Below, piece after piece: positions 2,802 to 20,204 of a stretch of DNA of 64,000 nt. Source of the DNA: Candidatus Binatia bacterium (GTDB lineage Bacteria > Desulfobacterota > Binatia > UBA9968 > CAXXLF01); NCBI GenBank assembly GCA_963664015.2, contig CAXXLF010000002.1, positions 192,001 to 256,000 of the forward strand, given 5' to 3'. A program made the position numbers and the translations under genes. The first letter of the stretch is position 1; each line of letters begins with the position of its first letter. The notes below the pieces were generated by a model, which saw only the letters and a list, made by a program, of their open reading frames with translations, was not told the origin of the DNA and ran no database searches.

Positions 2802-3564
2802 TTAAGACGTCCAAACGCCCTTTGGGTCATATTTTCTCACGGCGGCGATCTCATCCATCGAAGGCGGAGTGGTTTCTTGAATCTCATCTGCAGGTTTTAG
2901 GGTCCAGGCCGTTTCGCGTTGGATCTCCTGAACCGTGCCACCAAGGTGATCGGAGCTCAGAACCATTTCACGGCTCGTGGAATCAAATGAAAAGATTCCT
3001 AGGCTCGTAATGACGCGACTGGGTCCTCCACCTCTAAGACCCTGCTTTTGTCGCCAATCATAACCGCTACCGTATCCTGGTGAGGTCATAAAGTGGACCT
3101 TAGGGGAAAACCGACGTCTCTCATGATTCATGATAATAATGCATCGGCCCGCCAGGGCCGCGATGTCTGCGGCCCCACCACTCCTGGGAAGCCGAGTTCG
3201 CTTCATTCGGTCTGCGACCCAGTGGGTGTTCAGGTTGCCCAACTGATCCACCTCGGCTCCACCGATAAATCCCAATTCGACTCGTCCGCTCTGAAGCAGA
3301 CCCATCACATCCAACAGGCCGCCGCAGGAGAGGGAACGGGCCACGTTGGGAGGATCGCTCATGGTGAAGATGGGGGTCCAGGGCGGGCCAATCCCGGATC
3401 ACCCCGTTTTCAAAGATTCCTATCGTCGTAGGGACGTGAAGTTCCTTTGCGACAACGAACCCAAGCAGAGGCAGCCGCATGCCGACAAAGGCCTTTTCCC
3501 CGTCGTGGATCTCACGAGCGGCGGCCACAACCATCAATTCTCTACGCGTATAATCCATCGTCAA
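2802..3564 (-). pseudogene. CoA-transferase beta subunit (glutaconate CoA-transferase B-like), frameshifted
   Basis: N-half in ORF 3121..3564 (AAREIHDGE..FVGMRLP..FENG); C-half in ORF 2802..3362 (GFIGGAEVDQLGNLN, RLP[R]SGGA). +1 shift in a C-run near 3375; conserved LPGSGG reads LPRSGG. Confidence 0.8.
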
Positions 3565-4471
3565 AGGCCGAAATTAACGGGTAGCGGGAGTAGTTCGGCC
3601 CGTGGCTTGAGGTTAGCCACCCGTTTTTGACCCAGTCGTTGAAGAAACTCCGAATGATCCCTAATGCCGAGCACCCAGTTATCCAGCCAACGCAAAGATT
3701 CGTCCATGCTTCGGGATTGCTTGTGGTAATCAAAGAAAAAATAGTCATCCCGACCAACGTAATCTTGCGTGGGCGAGGCATGGGAAGCAAAGGGTTCATG
3801 AACAACCCTGGATACGACAAATCCGGGGATGACCGTACGGTTGGGATCCGTAAGGATCTCTTCGTGAGTTACGATCTCCTCACAGGTCAGGATCACCCTT
3901 CGGGCCGCCATTGCCGCTTCCTGCACAACTCCTAGATTGCCCCAGAGATGGGCGTTACGCTCGGGGTCGCCCTCTGGACATGAAGAATGGCAACATCGGG
4001 AACAATGGACCGAACGACCAAAAGCTCCTCACCGGTATACGGACAACGGAGCGGTTTAAACTGGGTGTCGTGGCTAAAAGCGCTTTCCCGGATCGTCTGA
4101 GTTGGCAGGAAAGGTAATCCAATCGCTGCAGCCTTGAGACCCACGCGCAAGGTAAAATTTGAATGTTCCTCAATTTCCAATGGGCCGGGTATTTTTTCCT
4201 CCATGGCCCGTGTAAAGTTATGCCCCAAGCCTGCCGCCACATTTCCAACCCAGGCTGTGAGGACCTTTTTCGCACATCCGGCCCCTATGAGTTGATCAAA
4301 CTGAATATCGGAAATTGGGGCGATCAGCGTCAGGTTCCTTTTATTCTGCCTAACGATTTCATGACTAGCCGCGAATGGGATCAGAGATTCAAGCCCACAG
4401 CCCATAGCGACCGACATGCCATCCACAATTTCTTCGCCAATTGCCTCCTGCATTGAGCAGAGTTTCTCCAT
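3561..4471 (-). pseudogene. CoA-transferase alpha subunit (glutaconate CoA-transferase A-like), frameshifted
   Basis: ORF 3932..4471 (GLPFLP, PDVAILHVQRA) continues in another frame near 3970 as DPERNAHLWGNLGVVQEAAMAARRVILTCEEIV (ORF 3561..3926). Confidence 0.8.
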
Positions 4472-4501
4472 GGCCCTTCTATCTATCTGTTCATTTAAAA
4501 T

Positions 4502-4525
4502 CGGAACTTCCTAGTTTAAGGTCTT
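4502..4525. repeat. Terminal inverted repeat of the IS1595 element (transposase-distal end)
   Basis: Exact reverse complement of 7593-7616. Confidence 0.95.
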
Positions 4526-5744
4526 ATCTAACGCCATCGGATTTCAGTTTAGCGATTAGGAAAGCTTGATCCCTATCTCCCTTGGTGCTGTTACATGCCC
4601 CGCAGAGCAGTTGCAGGTTGTCCAAATGATCGCTCCCACCCTTACTCTGAGGAACCATGTGGTCCACCGTGAAATTGCGGAAGGGGAAGAACACCCTGCA
4701 ACCTCCGCACAGACCCTCTTGCTTGCCGAATAGTTGATGCTTGTGGGTCCGGTATCTTGGCAATTCTCCCTGGTCCGTCCGCTTCGGTATGTCGGATCGG
4801 CGGATCGGCTTGAAGTTGTGGAATAGGTCAATCTCCTTACGGATTCGTACCTGCACAAGATCGACTGCTTTCTCAGAAATGTCGATGCCTACCCACTGAC
4901 GGCCCAGACGTTCGGCTGCGACACAGGCCGTGGCGCACCCGGCGAAGGGGTCTAGCACCATATCACCATCGTTGGAGCTGGCCTGGATGATACGGGCCAG
5001 CAGGGCTAAGGGTTTTTGTGTAGGGTATCCGACCCGTTCTTTAGCGTTCGGGTTTATTATAGAAATCTCCCACCAATCGGGACACGGACTCTTGGCTTCA
5101 CTGTCTGTGGACGTTGCCAGCCTCATGCCATCTTGGAAAACGGCCTGCTGCTTTTTCCCCTTCCACCGCTTCATGGTGCCCTTCGACACCGGAACATACT
5201 GCGGGTTGAACGTCGCAAGGTCAGCATTGGAGTAGAAGAGGATGGTGTCGTGGTTTCTAACGAATTGTTTAGCTTCAACAGACCATTTCCTGTAGCACCA
5301 AGAAACCTCATTTCTAAACTCTCTCACTCCGAATACTGCATCCATGAGCAGCTTCAGGTAATGGCTCGCCGTGGGATCGCAGTGAAGGTAGACGGAGCCG
5401 GTGTCTTTGAGTATCCGCCGCATCTCTAGCAACCGGACGGCCATCATGATCAGATAGGATTTCATGCTGTCCCCATTCGCCAACCCCGCCGAACCGATAA
5501 CTGAGTACATAGTCGGGTTCTGCTCGGCGATTTCCCCGTGCCAAGCCACGTCTACATCGTCAAGGGTCCAGGTGTCCTTGAAGGCCGCTCCGGCTGCCTC
5601 CGAACCGATAGGAGCACTGTAGTTGCGGTCACTTTTGAACGGCGGGTCCAGGTAGATCAGGTCAACACTCTCGGAGTTCATACCCCGCATGATGTCCAAG
5701 TTGTCCCCGGTCCACATGGTTCGGTTTTTCCAGTTTGGTTCCAT
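4524..5744 (-). CDS. Beta-class N6-adenine/N4-cytosine DNA methyltransferase fused to a C-terminal HNH endonuclease domain
   Basis: DLIYLDPPF (motif IV), YPTQKP, VLDPFAGCAT (motif I); C-terminal CGGC...DHMVPQSKGGSDHLDNLQLLCGACNSTK zinc-HNH. Confidence 0.9.
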   Translation of the reverse strand: MEPNWKNRTMWTGDNLDIMRGMNSESVDLIYLDPPFKSDRNYSAPIGSEAAGAAFKDTWTLDDVDVAWHGEIAEQNPTMYSVIGSAGLANGDSMKSYLIMMAVRLLEMRRILKDTGSVYLHCDPTASHYLKLLMDAVFGVREFRNEVSWCYRKWSVEAKQFVRNHDTILFYSNADLATFNPQYVPVSKGTMKRWKGKKQQAVFQDGMRLATSTDSEAKSPCPDWWEISIINPNAKERVGYPTQKPLALLARIIQASSNDGDMVLDPFAGCATACVAAERLGRQWVGIDISEKAVDLVQVRIRKEIDLFHNFKPIRRSDIPKRTDQGELPRYRTHKHQLFGKQEGLCGGCRVFFPFRNFTVDHMVPQSKGGSDHLDNLQLLCGACNSTKGDRDQAFLIAKLKSDGVR

Positions 5745-6647
5745 TCAATCTTCTGTGTCCGGCAAGTCTAGATCAAGATTTGTATTAATTCTGGGTCGCC
5801 ACCTTTGCAGTCTACGCTTAAACTCACTCCATGCCCGTTCTGGGTCGTGATGGGTGACAGTATTCATGATGGCAATTGCGCCATGTAGATGTTGCATTAA
5901 TTCCAGATAGCCCACTTCCCTAGTCAGGTGTTGATGATGCTTGCCTTCCCTTTCTCCACTCTCCATCCTTGGGTTGAATAATTCCAGTTGATCTAGTAAC
6001 CCAGGCGCTAGTCTTGCGTACACAATGTCATTTGTGTAATAGCCTACGACTTGTGGTCTATTGATATTCATTCCTTGCCATGCCCACCCCTTGAGCCTAA
6101 AGATTTCCTTGTAAAACTCATCAGGGAATGTCTTGGCCCATGCTGCCCGTGTAGGCGTCAGGTATCGGTCCAGAATCGCTTGTAATGCCGCTTTGTCTCT
6201 GATTTCCTGATAGTTAGTGGCCTCATCGACTAATGCTGCGATTCCTACATGAGCAAATCCACGCAACAAGATTTCAGCTTGTTCTGCTATATGCGTCTGT
6301 GACTGATATAACGCATTCGCGTCACGGGCTTTAAGATATACCTCACAGACACCCGGCAAAATCTCTGCCGAATATCCAAAGATCAGATGTTTTTCGAACC
6401 AAAACTGTACAACACTTGTCGCCATCATTAAGTCTTTGGATATAAAGGGTTTTAGGTTGTTTTGGGCTAGAAATGGGGGCAGTTTGTCGCCACCCCCTGT
6501 CCCCCCTCTAATTGAACCAGACCTGCCTAAAGCACCTAAGACACCACGCTGACTCAAAATCCTGCGTCCATCAGCTAGTACAAAACATGTGAATCTTATA
6601 TCTCCTATCTTCAATTCCCCACTATGGGTAGCCTGTGGGACGTTCAT
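5745..6647 (-). CDS. P63C domain-containing protein
   Basis: VLADGRRILSQRG N-terminus; GFAHVGIAALVDEATNYQE...WAKTFPDEFYKEIFRLKGW...YTNDIVYARLAPG...KHHQHLT matches the P63C family pattern. Confidence 0.85.
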   Translation of the reverse strand: MNVPQATHSGELKIGDIRFTCFVLADGRRILSQRGVLGALGRSGSIRGGTGGGDKLPPFLAQNNLKPFISKDLMMATSVVQFWFEKHLIFGYSAEILPGVCEVYLKARDANALYQSQTHIAEQAEILLRGFAHVGIAALVDEATNYQEIRDKAALQAILDRYLTPTRAAWAKTFPDEFYKEIFRLKGWAWQGMNINRPQVVGYYTNDIVYARLAPGLLDQLELFNPRMESGEREGKHHQHLTREVGYLELMQHLHGAIAIMNTVTHHDPERAWSEFKRRLQRWRPRINTNLDLDLPDTED

Positions 6648-7534
6648 GCTGCCACCCCCAATCCAAGATTGATGGTGGAGTTAAAGGCCAGGAGAGGGTT
6701 TACCTTGCGTAGATTGTAGCGGTAGCAGAACTCATCAACATAGCGTTGCAGGTGCTTTCGGCTCACGCTGTGGAACTGGCCGAACATACCGCGCTTCAAG
6801 AGAGCCCAAAATCCCTCAATCGTATTGGTGTGAATGTCGCCGTCTACGTACCATTCTTGATGCTTGATGACGGAATGAGGCAGAACCTTGGACATACTGA
6901 GATAACCCTTGTATTCATCTGTGATTAAACGGGTGGTTGATGTATCAATCTTGCTTCGTACGAAGGCGCGCATGTGTCTGCCCTTCATCTTATCCTTAGC
7001 AACGGACTTAGCTGTAACCTTCCCCCCACGCTCCACAGCCCCGATTACCGGAGCTTTAGGGGTCCCGCGTCCTCTTTTGTGACTACCGCCAGGTCCATCA
7101 CCTGGGGTCCCTTTTCTTGGTTTCCCCCCTACATAAGTCTCATCCATCTCAACGATGCCTGTTAGCATCCCGCGTTGCTCGCTTTGAGTCATGGATTTAC
7201 GGATCTGCATAGCGATCCTCCAAGCCGTGTTTTTATTCACCTTGAGATCGCGGGAAAGCTGAAGTGATGAAAGCCCCTTCCTAGCGTTCAATACCAGCAT
7301 GACTGCAAGGAACCACTTTTGAAGCGGCATATGGGTATGGTGAAATATCGTGCCGACCATCACACTAAAAGATGTTTTACAATCGTAACAGCGGTGGCGA
7401 TGCTGGTTGCGTGCTGTATTGATTGATCGGCAATAAGGACAAACTGGCTTATCCTTCCAGCGGGCCTTTTCCAGGTGAGCTATGCAATCTTTTTGGGTTG
7501 GAAACTGCTCGAAAATCCTTGTAATATTCATCAT
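6644..7534 (-). CDS. IS1595-family DDE transposase
   Basis: Zn ribbon CPYC...CYDC, HTH, VEMDETYVGG, LITDEYKGY, HTNTIEGFW, YVDEFCYRYN. Confidence 0.95.
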   Translation of the reverse strand: MMNITRIFEQFPTQKDCIAHLEKARWKDKPVCPYCRSINTARNQHRHRCYDCKTSFSVMVGTIFHHTHMPLQKWFLAVMLVLNARKGLSSLQLSRDLKVNKNTAWRIAMQIRKSMTQSEQRGMLTGIVEMDETYVGGKPRKGTPGDGPGGSHKRGRGTPKAPVIGAVERGGKVTAKSVAKDKMKGRHMRAFVRSKIDTSTTRLITDEYKGYLSMSKVLPHSVIKHQEWYVDGDIHTNTIEGFWALLKRGMFGQFHSVSRKHLQRYVDEFCYRYNLRKVNPLLAFNSTINLGLGVAA

Positions 7535-7565
7535 GCTACGTCCTTTCCCATTGACTATAGGAAGG

Positions 7566-7594
7566 ATCGTACCATGAATCTAAATAGATGTCAA
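7566..7594 (-). promoter_or_regulatory. sigma70-type promoter for the transposon operon, overlapping the TIR
   Basis: Minus strand TTGACA (7594-7589), 17 bp spacer, TACGAT (7571-7566) with an extended -10 TG. Confidence 0.7.
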
Positions 7595-7616
7595 GACCTT
7601 AAACTAGGAAGTTCCG
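7593..7616. repeat. Terminal inverted repeat of the IS1595 element (transposase-proximal end)
   Basis: Exact reverse complement of 4502-4525. Confidence 0.95.
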
Positions 7617-8134
7617 TTTAAAATTGCGCAAATCCTATCACTTATAAATGTGTAAATCCCACTCTTGGCAGCTGTTCGCCTCATATGGCTTTCCAACCGT
7701 CGGTTTAAAACAGGAGGATACCATTTCTTGGATTTTGGTGTTCTCATGGATTGACGTGCTCGCCTGTCGTCATGCTCTCGAATTCGTTCACGGGCATACC
7801 CAAGGAACGCAAGATCTAGTGGTAATAGGCAGGAAAACACAATATCGACCCTACGGCCCATCAGGGCTCCAAATGTTCAGCGGAGAGTGCCCTAGGAAGC
7901 TTACCCAGTTATTGGTAAGTTATTGATTTGTAGTCATATTCGCAGCTTATGATTTAAGCAATACGCTGGCGAACGCTACTTTTGGCCCCCGTGGCTCTCC
8001 CCGAACCCACTTATGCACAACTTAATGAACAGATTTAGTGGAAACTTTAACGCCAGGTCAGTCAAAAAAGTAAGGATTTGGCCGCCTTGTTTTCCAACCG
8101 TGGAAATGCTACGTGAACTTCCTGGATTTAAACC

Positions 8135-16376: not shown

Positions 16377-17348
16377 TCACAACTCGTGGCAGGCAGCGTA
16401 GTGTTGGGGGCGTTTATCTTCCAGAAGGGGCTCTTCTCCCTTGCAACGCTCAACCCGAATCGGGCAACGGGGCTCAAACCGGCAGCCCAAAGATGGGTTA
16501 ATGGGGAGAGCAACCTCGCCCCAGAGAATCTCTTGCTTTGTTATGTCGGCGTTGGGATCGATGATAGGGTTCGAGGCAATCAATCCCTTGGTATAGGGAT
16601 GGAGCCTATGGGTGAACAGTTCTGAGGTTGCGGCGATTTCTACCATTTTACCAGCGTACATGACGGCTACCACATCCGCCATGTACTCCACGACGTTGAG
16701 GTCATGAGAGATGAAGAGGAGTGTCAGGTTGAGCTCCCGTTGAAGCCTCTTGAACAGGTTGAGAACCTGGGCCTGAACCGAGACATCGAGGGAAGATACG
16801 GGTTCATCGGCGATGATCAGTTTGGGCTGGGGCGCCAGGGCCCGCGCAATACCGATTCGCTGGCGCTGCCCGCCACTGAATTCATGGGGATAACGATTCA
16901 TCTGATCCGGCTGGAGCCCAACAAGCTCCAGCAACTCGCCCACCGCGAGGGCTTTTTTCCTACCACTCAACCCGCGATAGAGCGTCAGGGGGCGGCCCAC
17001 AATGTCTAAGATACTCATCCGGGGATTTAGCGAGGCATAGGGGTCTTGGAAAACCATCTGGATATGTCGCCTGAGGTCACGGACCTCCCTTTTGGGAAGA
17101 GTGAGGATGTTCTGCCCCTGAAAGAAGACTTCGCCTCCGGTCGCTGGAACCAGCCGAGTAATGAGGCGGGCGGTGGTGGACTTGCCGCAACCACTTTCAC
17201 CCACCAGGCCGAACAGGGCCCCTTCTTCAATGGAAAAACTGACATGGTCGACTGCTTTTAAGATGCGTTCGCCATATATTAATCCTGTGACAAATCCTGA
17301 ATTGAGATCAAAATACTTGGTAAGATTACGAATTTCTAAAAGTTTCAT
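16377..17348 (-). CDS. Oligopeptide/dipeptide/nickel ABC transporter ATP-binding protein (OppF-like)
   Basis: GESGCGKST, FSGGQRQR, ADEP, HPYT, GCRFEPRC; probable ATG at 17348 overlaps the stop of the upstream gene. Confidence 0.92.
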   Translation of the reverse strand: MKLLEIRNLTKYFDLNSGFVTGLIYGERILKAVDHVSFSIEEGALFGLVGESGCGKSTTARLITRLVPATGGEVFFQGQNILTLPKREVRDLRRHIQMVFQDPYASLNPRMSILDIVGRPLTLYRGLSGRKKALAVGELLELVGLQPDQMNRYPHEFSGGQRQRIGIARALAPQPKLIIADEPVSSLDVSVQAQVLNLFKRLQRELNLTLLFISHDLNVVEYMADVVAVMYAGKMVEIAATSELFTHRLHPYTKGLIASNPIIDPNADITKQEILWGEVALPINPSLGCRFEPRCPIRVERCKGEEPLLEDKRPQHYAACHEL

Positions 17349-18331
17349 TACTTTTGGCCTCCGGGAAAATAACAGGCCACCGAACCGCTCGCTGACTTGG
17401 TTTCCAACTCTGGAGACTCGGTCTTGCAGATTTCTTTGGCTTTGTAGCAACGGGGGTGGAATTTGCAACCGGAAGGAGGATCTAGAAGATTGCAGATGGT
17501 CCCCGGTACCGCCGTTAGGGGTTTATCACGGTATTCAGGCCTGGGAATCGCCTGCATAAGCCCCTGGGTGTAGGGGTGGAGAGGATTGGTAAAGAGATTT
17601 TTCTTATCTGTCAACTCCACCAGGGATCCCGCATACATTACGCCGATACGGTTGCAGAGCGATGCAACAACGCCCAGATTATGGGAGATGAAGATGAGGG
17701 CCATCTTGAATTTTTCCTGTAGTTCTTTGAGCAATTCCAGGATCTGAGCCTGGATGGTTACATCCAGGGCCGTGGTCGGCTCGTCGGCGATCAAGACCCT
17801 TGGCTGGCATGCCAACGCCATCGCAATCATCACTCGTTGCCTCATCCCGCCGCTGAGTTCGTATGGGTAGCGATCTATCAGCGTCTTGGGTGATGGGACA
17901 CGGACCGAGCTAAGAACTTCCTCCGACCGTTCACGGGCCACCTTCCTCGAGTCTCCCATATGGATCCGATAACATTCGGAGATCTGGTTGCCGATGGTAA
18001 AAGAAGGGTTCAATGATGTCATCGGTTCCTGGAAGATCATCGAGATTTGACTTCCACGTATCTTTTGCATCTTTTTATCGCTCTTTTTAAGTAGGTCGGA
18101 GCCATCAAATATGATCTCCCCATTGGCGATGCGTCCTGGGGGAGACGGGATGAGGCTTAAGATGGAAAAGGCCGTGACACTTTTGCCAGAGCCCGTTTCC
18201 CCGACGATACCCAGGGTCTCACCTTCACGGAGAGAGAAGGAGACGTTATTGACGGCTCTCAGAATTCCCTGTTTGAGTTGGAATTCAACGGTGAGATTGC
18301 GGACGTCGAGAAGCGGTGTGTTAGAGTTCAT
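17348..18331 (-). CDS. Oligopeptide/dipeptide/nickel ABC transporter ATP-binding protein (OppD-like)
   Basis: [42 protein letters not shown]. Confidence 0.92.
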
Positions 18332-18332
18332 A

Positions 18333-19235
18333 TTAACGATCGTATTGCCTCGGATCAAAGACGTCCCGGAGTCCATCTCCGAAGAGATTAAAACCTAGAA
18401 TCATGAAGGATATTGTCAATCCGGGGAAAAATGCAGCCCATGGTTGTAGCTCCAGAAAGGGACTGACCTCCTTTAACATAAGGCCCCAGCTGGGCGTAGG
18501 AGGCGGAAACCCCAGGCCAAGAAAACTCAGGGACGATTCGGTCAAGATGGCATTTGCAAAATCGAGGCTAAGGCGCACCAGCAGCGGTGGTAGACAGTTG
18601 GGCAGGATATGCCTGAACATGATCAAGCTGTCCGTTTCACCGGTCATGCGGGCGGCCTCCACGTATTCCTTTTCCTTCTGGGTCAGCACGGCGCCGCGCA
18701 CGATACGGGCGAAAGATGGTATAGAGCTCACACCAATAGCCAGATATAGCGAAAAAAGCCCCCCTCCAAGGGATGCCACCAGGGCGATGGCAAGGAGACG
18801 CCCGGGGAAGGCCAGGATGGAGTCCATCACCCGCATCAGCGACATGTCGACCCAGCCCCCAAAATAACCCGCAAACATACCAATGGGTATCCCTAGTAGC
18901 GCCCCCAGCATTACGGCTCCGATGGCAACCAGGAAGGCCGTCCGGGCGCCAAATATCATCCGGGTATAGGTGTCCCGACCCATGAAATCCGTCCCGAGCC
19001 AGTGAGGCCGGCTGGGACCCTGAAGCCGCTCGGAGATGTTGATCTCAAAAGGATCATGGGTAACCAGGAATGGGGCGAAGACCGCCGCAAAGAGCCCGAC
19101 GAGAATAATTACCAAACCTATCAAGGCGAGTCGATTGCGCGCAATGACCTGGAAGCCGGCGGTGAAACGCAAGGCTGCCAATCTCAAACCCGCGGGCGAG
19201 GAAGATCCATTATTCTGTAAAGAGACAGTTTCCAT
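18333..19235 (-). CDS. Peptide/nickel ABC transporter permease (OppC/DppC-like)
   Basis: HWLGTDFMGRD, EYVEAAR, ILPNC, LSFLGLG, NLFGDGLRDVFDPR. Confidence 0.92.
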   Translation of the reverse strand: METVSLQNNGSSSPAGLRLAALRFTAGFQVIARNRLALIGLVIILVGLFAAVFAPFLVTHDPFEINISERLQGPSRPHWLGTDFMGRDTYTRMIFGARTAFLVAIGAVMLGALLGIPIGMFAGYFGGWVDMSLMRVMDSILAFPGRLLAIALVASLGGGLFSLYLAIGVSSIPSFARIVRGAVLTQKEKEYVEAARMTGETDSLIMFRHILPNCLPPLLVRLSLDFANAILTESSLSFLGLGFPPPTPSWGLMLKEVSPFLELQPWAAFFPGLTISFMILGFNLFGDGLRDVFDPRQYDR

Positions 19236-19238
19236 TAA

Positions 19239-20204
19239 TTATTCCAACTTGATCCGGGGATCCAGCCATTTATAAAGGATGTCAACAATCAGGTTAATCG
19301 CGACGTAGGTCAAAGCGATAATCAGCACCGCCCCCTGGACAATGGGATAGTCCCGGCCATAGATCCCCTCCAGAAGAAGGCTAGCGACGCCAGGCCACGT
19401 GAAGACCGTTTCAATAATCGTAGATCCTCCCAGCAAACGTGCGATGTCCAAGCCAAGTATGGTGACGATCGAAATCATTGAGTTTTTTGCCGCGTGTTTG
19501 ACAATGACCATTTTGGGTGGGAGTCCCTTAGCGCGGGCCGTGCGAACATAATCCTGGCTCAGCTGCTCGAGCATCTCTGCTCTCATATAGCGGGTTACGG
19601 AAGCCGCCATGGAGGTTCCAAGCACAATAGCGGGTAAAGAGACGTGCTGCAGGAACTTGAACGGGTCTTCCAATGGGCTTGCGTAACCGATGGACGGGAC
19701 GATTCCCAGCTTGAGGCTGAAGAGTAAAATCAACATAAGGGCCAACCAAAAGTTGGGTATGGCCATTCCCCACATGGCGTACCCCATGGCGCTGTAATCG
19801 ACAAGAGTGTTCTGCCGGACAGCGGCAATGATACCGGCCGGCAGTGAGATGAAGATGACCGTGATAAAGGCCGAAAAGGCGAGATAGATGGTCGCGGGAT
19901 AACGCTCGAGTAATATGTCTAAGACGGGACGCCGGGATTGGAGCGAGAGCCCCAGATCCCCATTGAGGACTCTTCCCAGCCAACGGAAATACTGGACATA
20001 CACAGGCTGGTCAAATCCCAATTGTTTTTGAAGCGCTCGGTACTGGTCCTCACTATAAGAGGCGCCAACCTCCGGGTCAACGCCTAGCATAACCAGGATC
20101 GGATCCCCGGGGATTATGTGAACGATTAAAAAGACGATCAGGCTTACCAGGAAAAGAACCGGGATAAGCTGCATGATGCGCTGGATGATGTAACGGCCTA
20201 ACAC
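19239..20204 (-). CDS. Peptide/nickel ABC transporter permease (OppB/DppB-like)
   Basis: PGDP, GDLGLS, YVRTARAKGL, ETVFTWPG, RDYPIVQG, LDPRI. Confidence 0.92.
   Translation of the reverse strand: MLGRYIIQRIMQLIPVLFLVSLIVFLIVHIIPGDPILVMLGVDPEVGASYSEDQYRALQKQLGFDQPVYVQYFRWLGRVLNGDLGLSLQSRRPVLDILLERYPATIYLAFSAFITVIFISLPAGIIAAVRQNTLVDYSAMGYAMWGMAIPNFWLALMLILLFSLKLGIVPSIGYASPLEDPFKFLQHVSLPAIVLGTSMAASVTRYMRAEMLEQLSQDYVRTARAKGLPPKMVIVKHAAKNSMISIVTILGLDIARLLGGSTIIETVFTWPGVASLLLEGIYGRDYPIVQGAVLIIALTYVAINLIVDILYKWLDPRIKLE

Follow-up and report, generated by a model that had tools for sequence, protein, structure and literature searches.

By what routes restriction-modification (R-M) systems pass between bacteria that are not related has long been asked, and a locus of a Candidatus Binatia bacterium raises the question here. 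The stretch of DNA analysed, a 64-kb piece of contig CAXXLF010000002.1 (positions 192,001 to 256,000; referred to below as the window), holds a 3,115-bp element at 4502-7616. In it, a transposase gene (tnp) of the IS1595 family of insertion sequences (IS), a gene for a P63C-domain protein and a gene for a DNA methyltransferase (MTase) fused to an HNH nuclease follow one another between inverted ends. An original prediction, made from the letters of the window, had described an IS1595 transposon carrying the last two genes together as cargo. Does the locus bear the marks of an insertion, which of its genes belong to the transposon and which are carried by it, and what might each of them do? The analysis identified an intact IS1595-family element with passenger DNA, in which the P63C gene belongs to the core of the IS lineage and the third gene occupies a variable slot. 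Taken together, this anatomy, the membership of a wider clade and the picture of a cargo slot are in our view likely to be correct. The clade is an abundant and very compact vehicle of 2-4 kb, in which ordinary IS ends enclose complete modules of the restriction or toxin-antitoxin type, and it was found in genomes labelled as many different phyla.

An intact IS1595-family element and its clade

The element is bounded by perfect 24-bp inverted ends with the sequence CGGAACTTCCTAGTTTAAGGTCTT (24/24 identical), beyond which the inverted repeat is no longer perfect (Table 1). No further match to CGGAACTTCCTAGTTTAAGGTCTT was found in the window at up to three mismatches, and 100 shuffles gave 0 matches. 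Directly outside both ends lies an exact copy of the octamer TTTAAAAT, and this duplication encloses all three genes. The transposase carries the catalytic domain PF12762 (113.8 bits, cutoff 27) and the zinc ribbon PF12760 (33.5 bits, cutoff 25.4), and scores 198.3 bits against the NCBIfam model NF033547 'IS1595 family transposase' (cutoff 75). The source names of its closest relatives say only 'IS1595 family transposase', and the best plasmid-borne relative is 41% identical. The P63C protein reaches 100.6 bits against PF10546 (gathering cutoff 26.1). In the third protein, PF01555 (N6_N4_Mtase) covers residues 27-297 (153 bits, 1.4e-44) and the HNH domain PF01844 residues 346-391 (49 bits, 5e-13), and PADLOC scores the whole as MTase_II (1.4e-69). 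The GC content of the element is 50.0%, compared to 53.0% (standard deviation 1.7) in windows of the same size, and that of the P63C gene is 46.1%; this deviation is mild and not decisive.

Table 1. Positions of the element's features in the window
Feature	Position	Strand	Remarks
Left copy of the target-site duplication, 8 bp, TTTAAAAT	4494..4501	.	identical to 7617-7624, read directly
Distal (cargo-side) terminal inverted repeat, 24 bp	4502..4525	+	0 mismatches to partner
Cargo gene: DNA methyltransferase + C-terminal HNH nuclease fusion, 406 aa	4524..5744	-	PF01555, PF01844
P63C-domain gene (core companion), 300 aa	5745..6647	-	PF10546, residues 158-250
tnp, IS1595-family transposase, 296 aa, N-terminal zinc ribbon + DDE domain	6644..7534	-	PF12760, PF12762, NF033547
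Putative promoter: TTGACA, 17 nt, TG-TACGAT	7566..7594	-	10/12 consensus matches
Proximal (transposase-side) terminal inverted repeat, 24 bp	7593..7616	-	0 mismatches to partner
Right copy of the target-site duplication, 8 bp, TTTAAAAT	7617..7624	.	read directly

The three genes are tightly packed. tnp and the P63C gene overlap by ATGA (the plus strand reads TCAT at 6644-6647), the P63C stop codon TGA (5747-5745) abuts the ATG of the MTase-HNH gene (5744-5742), and the MTase-HNH stop codon (4526-4524) shares 2 nt with the distal inverted repeat. All three protein lengths equal those of intact relatives, the MTase-HNH homologues measuring 402-407 aa. These data support a single coupled unit lying behind a promoter whose position is conserved in the family (see below). 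Perfect 24-bp ends, an exact 8-bp duplication, an intact IS1595-family element and each of the three gene junctions had been predicted, and all of them were borne out.

The insertion site is an AT-rich intergenic octamer, and a CoA-transferase-like gene follows 22 bp downstream. The same-family genome G004 has both flanks, with order and orientation unchanged, at a distance of 653 bp, compared to 3,714 bp in the window. This difference agrees with the size of the element, no element lies between the flanks in G004, and the alignment of the left flank reaches as far as the insertion point. An unduplicated TTTAAAAT is not visible in G004, where the intergenic DNA beyond the left flank is too diverged. 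Cargo genes standing at this locus without the inverted ends were not seen in G004, the one relative examined. The comparison therefore amounts to an empty site at the level of synteny and supports the conclusion, already proposed in the original prediction, that the element was inserted at this site and is not ancestral there.

To place the element, two samples of relatives were collected. In the first, selected by P63C, the best 80 of 409 relatives were kept and, with those of a first scan, 85 loci were scored; in the second, selected by transposase, the best 80 of 453 relatives were kept, with 54-92% identity to the transposase of the window. A co-oriented IS1595 tnp was found directly upstream of the P63C gene in 41/85 P63C-selected loci, two of these being only C-terminal tnp fragments and three being of a distant type (33-38% identity). 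Both ends, with the consensus CGGAATTTCCTAGTTTAAGGTCTT, were located in 31 of the P63C-selected loci, and 19/31 had exact 8-bp duplications. The end of the window copy differs from this consensus at one position, with C as its sixth base. In the transposase-selected sample both ends were located in 57 loci, with exact duplications in 31/57, and the 39 distinct target duplications average 77% A+T.

P63C lay directly downstream of tnp in 72/80 transposase-selected loci; with L238, where it lies further downstream, and L257, where it is also present, the total is 74/80. In two of the six remaining loci tnp is truncated (L286, L289), one ends 70 bp after tnp (L299), and the other three (L296, L302, L303) are the most distant of the sample (54-57%) and lack a CGGAATTTCCTAGTTTAAGGTCTT-type end sequence. 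Elements range in size from 1,871 to 5,623 bp, and the smallest contain tnp and P63C only (L035=L275, 1,871 bp; L054, 1,923 bp; L032, 1,968 bp; L025=L261, 2,009 bp). From its presence in 74/80 loci and from these minimal elements, it follows that P63C is a core gene of the IS lineage and not cargo, as the original prediction had it. We would define the clade by CGGAATTTCCTAGTTTAAGGTCTT ends, 8-bp duplications and a core operon of tnp and P63C in overlapping or closely adjacent frames.

The clade is widely distributed. The genome collection yielded at least 120 stretches with a degenerate end motif, in records that include metagenome-assembled genomes (MAGs) labelled Acidobacteriota, Binatia, Alpha- and Gammaproteobacteria, Dehalococcoidia, Nitrospinales and others, and the transposases of the clade are 70-90% identical across phyla. 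Several MAGs hold multiple copies, for example L028-L031, L090/L092/L093 and L251/L252/L254. The complete arrangement of the window, tnp-P63C-MTase-HNH between the same ends, recurs in MAGs labelled Terriglobia, Acidiferrales, Acidobacteriota, Dehalococcoidia, Rhodospirillaceae, Myxococcota and Vicinamibacterales, and is not unusual.

Passenger-bearing IS1595 elements are already in print. Siguier, Gagnevin and Chandler reportedly defined IS1595 elements with passenger genes as 'transporter IS' (tIS) in 2009, and the window element resembles these in its zinc-ribbon and DDE transposase, inverted repeats, 8-bp duplication and extra genes inside the ends. The ISNha5 subgroup is said to have ends of the form CGGnnTT, with which the family consensus CGGAATT would agree, and lengths of ~3.4-7.9 kb, compared to 3.1 kb for the window copy and 1.9 kb for its minimal relatives. 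A literature search for ISNha5, ISNwi1 and ISSod11/ISPna2 returned only passing mentions, and in an excerpt of one paper ISNha5 is named as a tIS of the IS1595 family with a 'transcription regulator' passenger (PMC11891212).

Two observations concern rearranged or reduced forms of these elements. In one MAG the octamers of two copies, L233 and L250 (also L030 and L031), are swapped, ACGCAAAA/ACCGAGGT in one and ACCGAGGT/ACGCAAAA in the other, as expected from recombination between two copies, for instance by inversion of the intervening DNA. At L157 (101-487), two inverted end repeats lie 366 bp apart and have the appearance of a non-autonomous derivative resembling a miniature inverted-repeat transposable element.

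The P63C protein

The P63C protein matches phage family phrog_2384 over its full length (7e-95), and in the protein collection at least 2,896 relatives were counted, of which hardly any bears a name. Many temperate phages encode the domain, the Stx2-converting phage 933W among them. The phage proteins (Mx8 p63, 933W ST933Wp35, phrog_2384) have the same Pfam domain and belong to the same full-length family as the protein of the window, and differ from it in having no adjacent transposase. In the nin region of 933W (L318 4127-6759; record 16823-19455) the P63C gene is located between a DNA methyltransferase gene and the anti-repressor gene roi; a methylase-P63C neighbourhood therefore occurs in phage too. 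Three P63C loci adjoin S24/LexA/CI-type repressors. In our literature search no paper connected the P63C domain with insertion sequences, and one excerpt mentions P63C only in a phage network.

In an AlphaFold2 (AF2) model with a pLDDT of 77, a beta-rich N-terminal domain is followed by a helical body. No match was obtained with Foldseek in the PDB at E <= 0.001 and nothing meaningful in a PDB sequence search; neither a PADLOC defence family nor an NCBIfam model matched, and a permissive Pfam scan of four members gave only P63C. Weak similarities came from four other comparisons. With VIA-align, residues ~5-150 resembled the N-domain of CpGV Orf22 (Z 5.8) and DdrC, Dachshund/Ski and the Swi6 N-domain (Z 3.6-5.0). 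Among viral models (BFVD) the best matches were an unnamed protein (1e-8) and Mx8 p63 (3.5e-7), after which came BRO, KilA and anti-repressor proteins (E 0.01-0.3). The nearest named Atlas clusters were BstA_C proteins at 0.88, which is below the level of more than a lead, then ORF6N, Bro-N, AntA and KilA-N. Finally, hhalign gave a probability of 3.4% against a single BstA sequence, and E 0.002 with a probability of 13.6% against a 36-row BstA profile, over 111 columns (20-150 of P63C on 41-163 of BstA) in the N-terminal part only. Conserved residues of P63C include a polar motif, D141-E142-x-T144-x-Y146-Q147-xx-R150, and further T205, D207, R212, R233, H253 and R282.

To compare the rates at which the two core proteins diverge, 56 intact tnp/P63C pairs were set against each other in 1,540 comparisons, which are not independent. 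The identities of the two proteins were related with a Spearman rho of 0.31, and element pairs with transposases 85-95% identical had a median P63C identity of 49%. Between the window and its closest relative, L224, the transposases are 92% and the P63C proteins 44% identical. The P63C protein has changed far more rapidly than the transposase, and its divergence is largely uncoupled from that of the transposase.

A DDE protein of another kind also accompanies P63C. In 16 further loci, proteins of ~280 aa with weak IS1/IS240 DDE matches are encoded divergently upstream of P63C genes whose products are 46-54% identical to that of the window (L046, L047, L051, L053, L061, L068, L072, L083, L086, L094, L095, L098, L099 and L100, with fragments in L043 and L097); a nested case was noted in L036 (6831-7439). 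The proteins of this second family may represent an undescribed group of transposases with which P63C also moves.

Two roles for the protein were weighed. The first, to which we give nearly an even chance, is that of a DNA-binding accessory or regulatory partner needed for the life cycle of the IS lineage itself. The near-universal presence of P63C in the clade, its position directly after tnp and its pairing with the second DDE family point to such a transposon-linked role. The decoupling of P63C identity from transposase identity speaks against it, and would be unexpected for a tightly co-evolving mechanistic partner. A prediction of the transposase-P63C complex scored 0.00 (mark 0.32) without controls, and gives no answer either way.

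The second, which ranks below the first and which we consider rather unlikely, is that P63C is itself a payload: a BstA-like abortive-infection or anti-repressor-like protein, kept because it pays for its carriage. The remainder of the probability goes to something else. In excerpts of Owen et al. 2021 (PMC8585504), BstA is a prophage-encoded abortive-infection protein with an N-terminal KilA-N-like DNA-binding domain. Like P63C it is ~300 aa long and encoded by mobile elements, and its KilA-N-like domain is the part with which the N-terminal part of P63C weakly aligns; the Atlas neighbours and the BRO, KilA and anti-repressor matches in BFVD are of the same kind. Full-length P63C homologues (38-44% identity) lie in accessory regions of temperate phages, as in the nin region of 933W beside the MTase gene and roi, and the three loci beside repressors also suit this second role. 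A divergence as fast as that of P63C is typical of conflict genes and, together with the phage accessory-region homologues, points to a conflict-type role. On the other side, the C-terminal domain of the window protein is P63C and not the BstA_C domain of BstA homologues, and nothing aligned there. Membership of the BstA family was for this reason set aside (from hhalign alone) and kept as a lead. All fold and profile matches are weak (Z at most 5.8, probability 13.6%), PADLOC offers no defence family, and the presence in 74/80 loci, the position right after tnp and the second DDE pairing in 16 loci suit a transposon-linked role better.

A wider proposal starts from the accessory or regulatory partner and is held only tentatively, the balance being somewhat against it. 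According to this proposal, P63C proteins would be obligate partners of DNA transposons and form an unrecognised class of accessory protein, with a Bro-N/KilA-N-like DNA-binding head, a helical body bearing the conserved DExTxYQ motif and an independent tie to DNA transposons through the second DDE family; the IS1595 clade would be a dedicated shuttle of modules across phyla. What such a shuttle would move from one distant phylum to another are minimal modules of three kinds: restriction-modification, methyl-directed restriction and toxin-antitoxin. If transposition does need P63C, the protein would be a new kind of accessory for the IS1/IS1595 group; if instead P63C is a defence or anti-repressor protein, the clade would represent an IS lineage into which a gene for interaction with phages is built. 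The three-gene construct of the window offers a tractable means of asking which role the P63C domain has.

The cargo slot and the methyltransferase-HNH protein

To characterise the third position, the open reading frames (ORFs) between P63C and the far end were annotated with Pfam and PADLOC. This position is a variable slot, in which restriction-type or toxin-antitoxin modules differ between family members. Intact MTase-HNH fusions occupy it in the window, L060=L280 (3,100 bp, own duplication TAGTTTAA), L092=L266, L040, L290 (3,127 bp, own duplication TTTAAAAA) and, on the opposite strand, L240. Other slots hold an N6_N4 MTase with an Eco47II-type restriction endonuclease (REase) (L251, L252 and L254, three 3,595-bp copies in one MAG), a C5 MTase with a HindVP-type REase (L255) or an MTase with a BglII-like REase (L018). 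In L281 an MTase is accompanied by a separate His-Me/Endonuclease VII-type nuclease that PADLOC scores as REase_II (5e-43). The slot is also occupied by an MTase-Mrr_cat fusion (L024=L227), a methyl-directed type II REase (L260, 2.5e-48), a RAMA-domain protein (L237), SocA/Panacea antitoxin modules (L048, L278) and a CapP/ImmA-like peptidase (L038).

In an alignment of eight MTase-HNH sequences, the MTase motifs DPPF and DPFAGCAT are conserved and the HNH residues C346, C349, D361, H362, N376, C381, C384 and N385 are invariant in 8/8. The stretch between the MTase motifs, presumed to be the recognition region, is hypervariable in length and sequence, with indels. The nearest solved chains are of the M.MboIIA, M.RsrI and CcrM type for the MTase, and the HNH domain is most like that of Cas9/IscB. 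The slot of the window copy holds a single polypeptide comprising an N6-adenine or N4-cytosine MTase, a hypervariable target-recognition region and a zinc-finger HNH nuclease, and a single-chain R-M enzyme is the most likely mechanism. The methylase would mark the host's copies of the site and the HNH domain would cut unmarked DNA; loss of the element would be penalised and incoming DNA restricted, favouring retention of the IS.

On balance we slightly favour this R-M mechanism for the MTase-HNH protein, mainly because sister slots hold recognisable R-M or addiction modules; the alignment of the eight sequences agrees with it. The original prediction had spoken of a restriction-modification-like, defence or addiction module, and the sister cargo now lends this strong contextual support, the function itself remaining a prediction from sequence.

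Several observations weigh against the R-M reading and the wider picture of the slot. An MTase is present in the slot of only ~18/80 transposase-selected loci, and many cargo ORFs, including small ORF pairs, have no recognisable family. The combination of an MTase with a C-terminal HNH domain was not matched to any characterised restriction enzyme in a comparison that did not extend to REBASE. Among IS-borne MTase-HNH copies, those that are truncated, frameshifted or disrupted by an IS outnumber the intact ones: L282 is truncated at its N-terminus, L239, L241, L062=L243, L090 and L093=L267 are decayed, and L058=L279 and L066=L242 are interrupted by another IS. The cargo is therefore dispensable for the IS and often lost while the IS stays. 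Finally, homologues exist outside the clade. In G002 (G002:C1, L305 7505-10938) a frameshifted MTase-HNH homologue is located between Mu-type portal and Mu F-like genes, inside the head module of a Mu-like prophage. In g5, a sister genus of the same order, a different IS1595-type tnp (33-37% identity) lies directly upstream of an MTase-HNH homologue (47-63%) without P63C (L009, L012, L014, L006 and L011, in G048, G042, G060, G054 and G040 respectively; L304 8832-10250). Similarity between the g5 genomes extends from the ribosome-binding site of tnp to just past the MTase-HNH stop codon, and no inverted ends were found around these pairs. The prophage and g5 homologues make an origin as a phage 'protective' methylase possible.

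On such an origin is built an alternative that we judge unlikely: the MTase-HNH protein would be no restriction system but a phage-captured orphan or protective methylase, its HNH domain serving in nicking, packaging or homing, and the IS would carry it either as neutral baggage or as a help against restriction during transfer. This would account for the G002 homologue between the portal and F genes and for the many decayed or interrupted IS-borne copies; moreover, the best PHROG match of the protein is the phage DNA methyltransferase phrog_67, and the window element has no separate specificity or control gene. Three observations argue the other way. Firstly, sister slots hold classical MTase and REase pairs, and the L281 nuclease, of the His-Me/HNH superfamily, scores as a type II REase. 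Secondly, the slot of L024 holds an MTase-Mrr fusion. Thirdly, the catalytic residues and zinc ligands of the HNH domain are invariant in 8/8 sequences while the recognition region varies, as expected if cleavage specificity matters.

A single-chain R-M enzyme would have known counterparts. In characterised single-chain R-M enzymes, a gamma-class methylase is usually preceded by an N-terminal PD-(D/E)XK nuclease. The protein of the window resembles such type IIC/IIG-like enzymes in uniting MTase and nuclease in one polypeptide with a single variable recognition region, and differs from them in joining an M.MboIIA/M.RsrI/CcrM-type methylase to a C-terminal HNH domain of Cas9/IscB type. The three-gene construct is tractable for asking whether this fusion is a one-protein restriction system that stabilises its carrier.

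Transposon-like R-M units are likewise in print. Excerpts of Furuta, Abe and Kobayashi 2010 (PMC2853133) describe units that have inverted repeats and 8-bp duplications and whose site is empty in a related genome, among them a Neisseria gonorrhoeae R-M unit with 26/26 inverted repeats and three ORFs, one with the transposase motif COG3677. The cases consist of a type IIG gene with an S-subunit homologue, or of a type IIP pair with 65-bp repeats; supplementary tables list 24 repeat-flanked cases, and the transporter-IS work of 2009 is cited for IS-linked R-M and solitary M genes. The window element shares with these units the R-M-type genes, the inverted repeats, the 8-bp duplication and the empty site in a relative; it differs in that the excerpts mention no P63C and describe no family-wide cargo slot. 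What appears worth following is the family-level picture: an IS1595 clade spread across phyla, with P63C as constant partner and a slot that gathers restriction-type and toxin-antitoxin modules.

Copies, junctions and transcription

The genome to which the window belongs (3.51 Mb, 2 contigs, 97% complete) holds one complete copy of the element and one decayed tnp and P63C remnant. In the remnant (G000:C2:431605-432433; L002 / L023), tnp is spread over several frames with 84% amino-acid identity and is followed by P63C fragments at 50%; no end repeat was found there at up to seven mismatches. G004, empty at the site of the window, carries elsewhere the closest relative of the window's element. 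That copy has a P63C gene and no detectable far end, which was not found within 16 kb at up to seven mismatches; ~400 bp past P63C (L022 6243-8822, G004:C7) lie two ORFs of 553 and 256 aa that by eye are IstA/IstB-like, of the IS21 type.

Public contigs from runs of two studies, one of which may be the source sample, cross both junctions of the window's element with no mismatch. In a run of a third study the element is present as a variant that lacks the flanks of the window, and one contig of this run ends exactly at the last base of the repeat. In metagenomes containing the organism of the window, the bin of the end repeat has a summed depth of 600-700 compared to 4-10 for the flanks; there must therefore be many elements with a shared end in those communities. 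Among the joints shown in the public runs no contig joins 4493 to 7625, and contigs cannot prove absence.

It is very improbable that the unit is not mobilised as one piece, with the ends of a simple IS and extra genes that are chance neighbours or an assembly chimera: the genome has only one full copy, and neither an empty-site read nor an excision joint was seen in the public runs, but both ends and all three genes lie between the two copies of the duplication, the contigs of two studies cross both junctions without mismatch, and recurrent bounded copies already contradict such a reading, namely units with the same order, the same ends and their own exact duplications elsewhere (L060 and L290, given above, and L062, 3,150 bp) and three ~3,159-bp copies in one genome (L090, L092, L093).

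A promoter at the inner edge of the inverted repeat on the transposase side probably drives all three genes. The sole sigma-70-like site in 4300-7800 lies there on the minus strand, with a -35 hexamer TTGACA (7594-7589) that straddles the inner edge of the repeat, a 17-nt spacer and a TG-extended TACGAT. A single such site is not above chance (shuffles average 3.8 sites). In the family, TTGA is invariant at the -35 position in 15/15 aligned members, with a TGnnAnnAT-like -10 ~17 nt after it in the same alignment; a promoter partly built into the proximal repeat had been predicted, and its conserved position agrees with this. Two points detract from the transcriptional reading. The promoter is putative, being a consensus match only, and the small RNA-library contigs that cover P63C and the tnp/P63C junction of a variant copy in one run, possibly through DNA carry-over, show neither transcription nor strand.

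Past the MTase-HNH stop codon, no terminator-like site was found before the CoA-transferase-like gene, whose start lies 22 bp beyond the duplication and which is on the same strand as the genes of the element. Read-through is therefore possible, and transcription from the element may run on into this downstream host gene. The CoA-transferase-like gene itself (window 3561-4471, minus strand) has its PF01144 match in the ORF 4471..3932 and continues in another frame in the ORF 3926..3561; it is either frameshifted or bears an assembly error.

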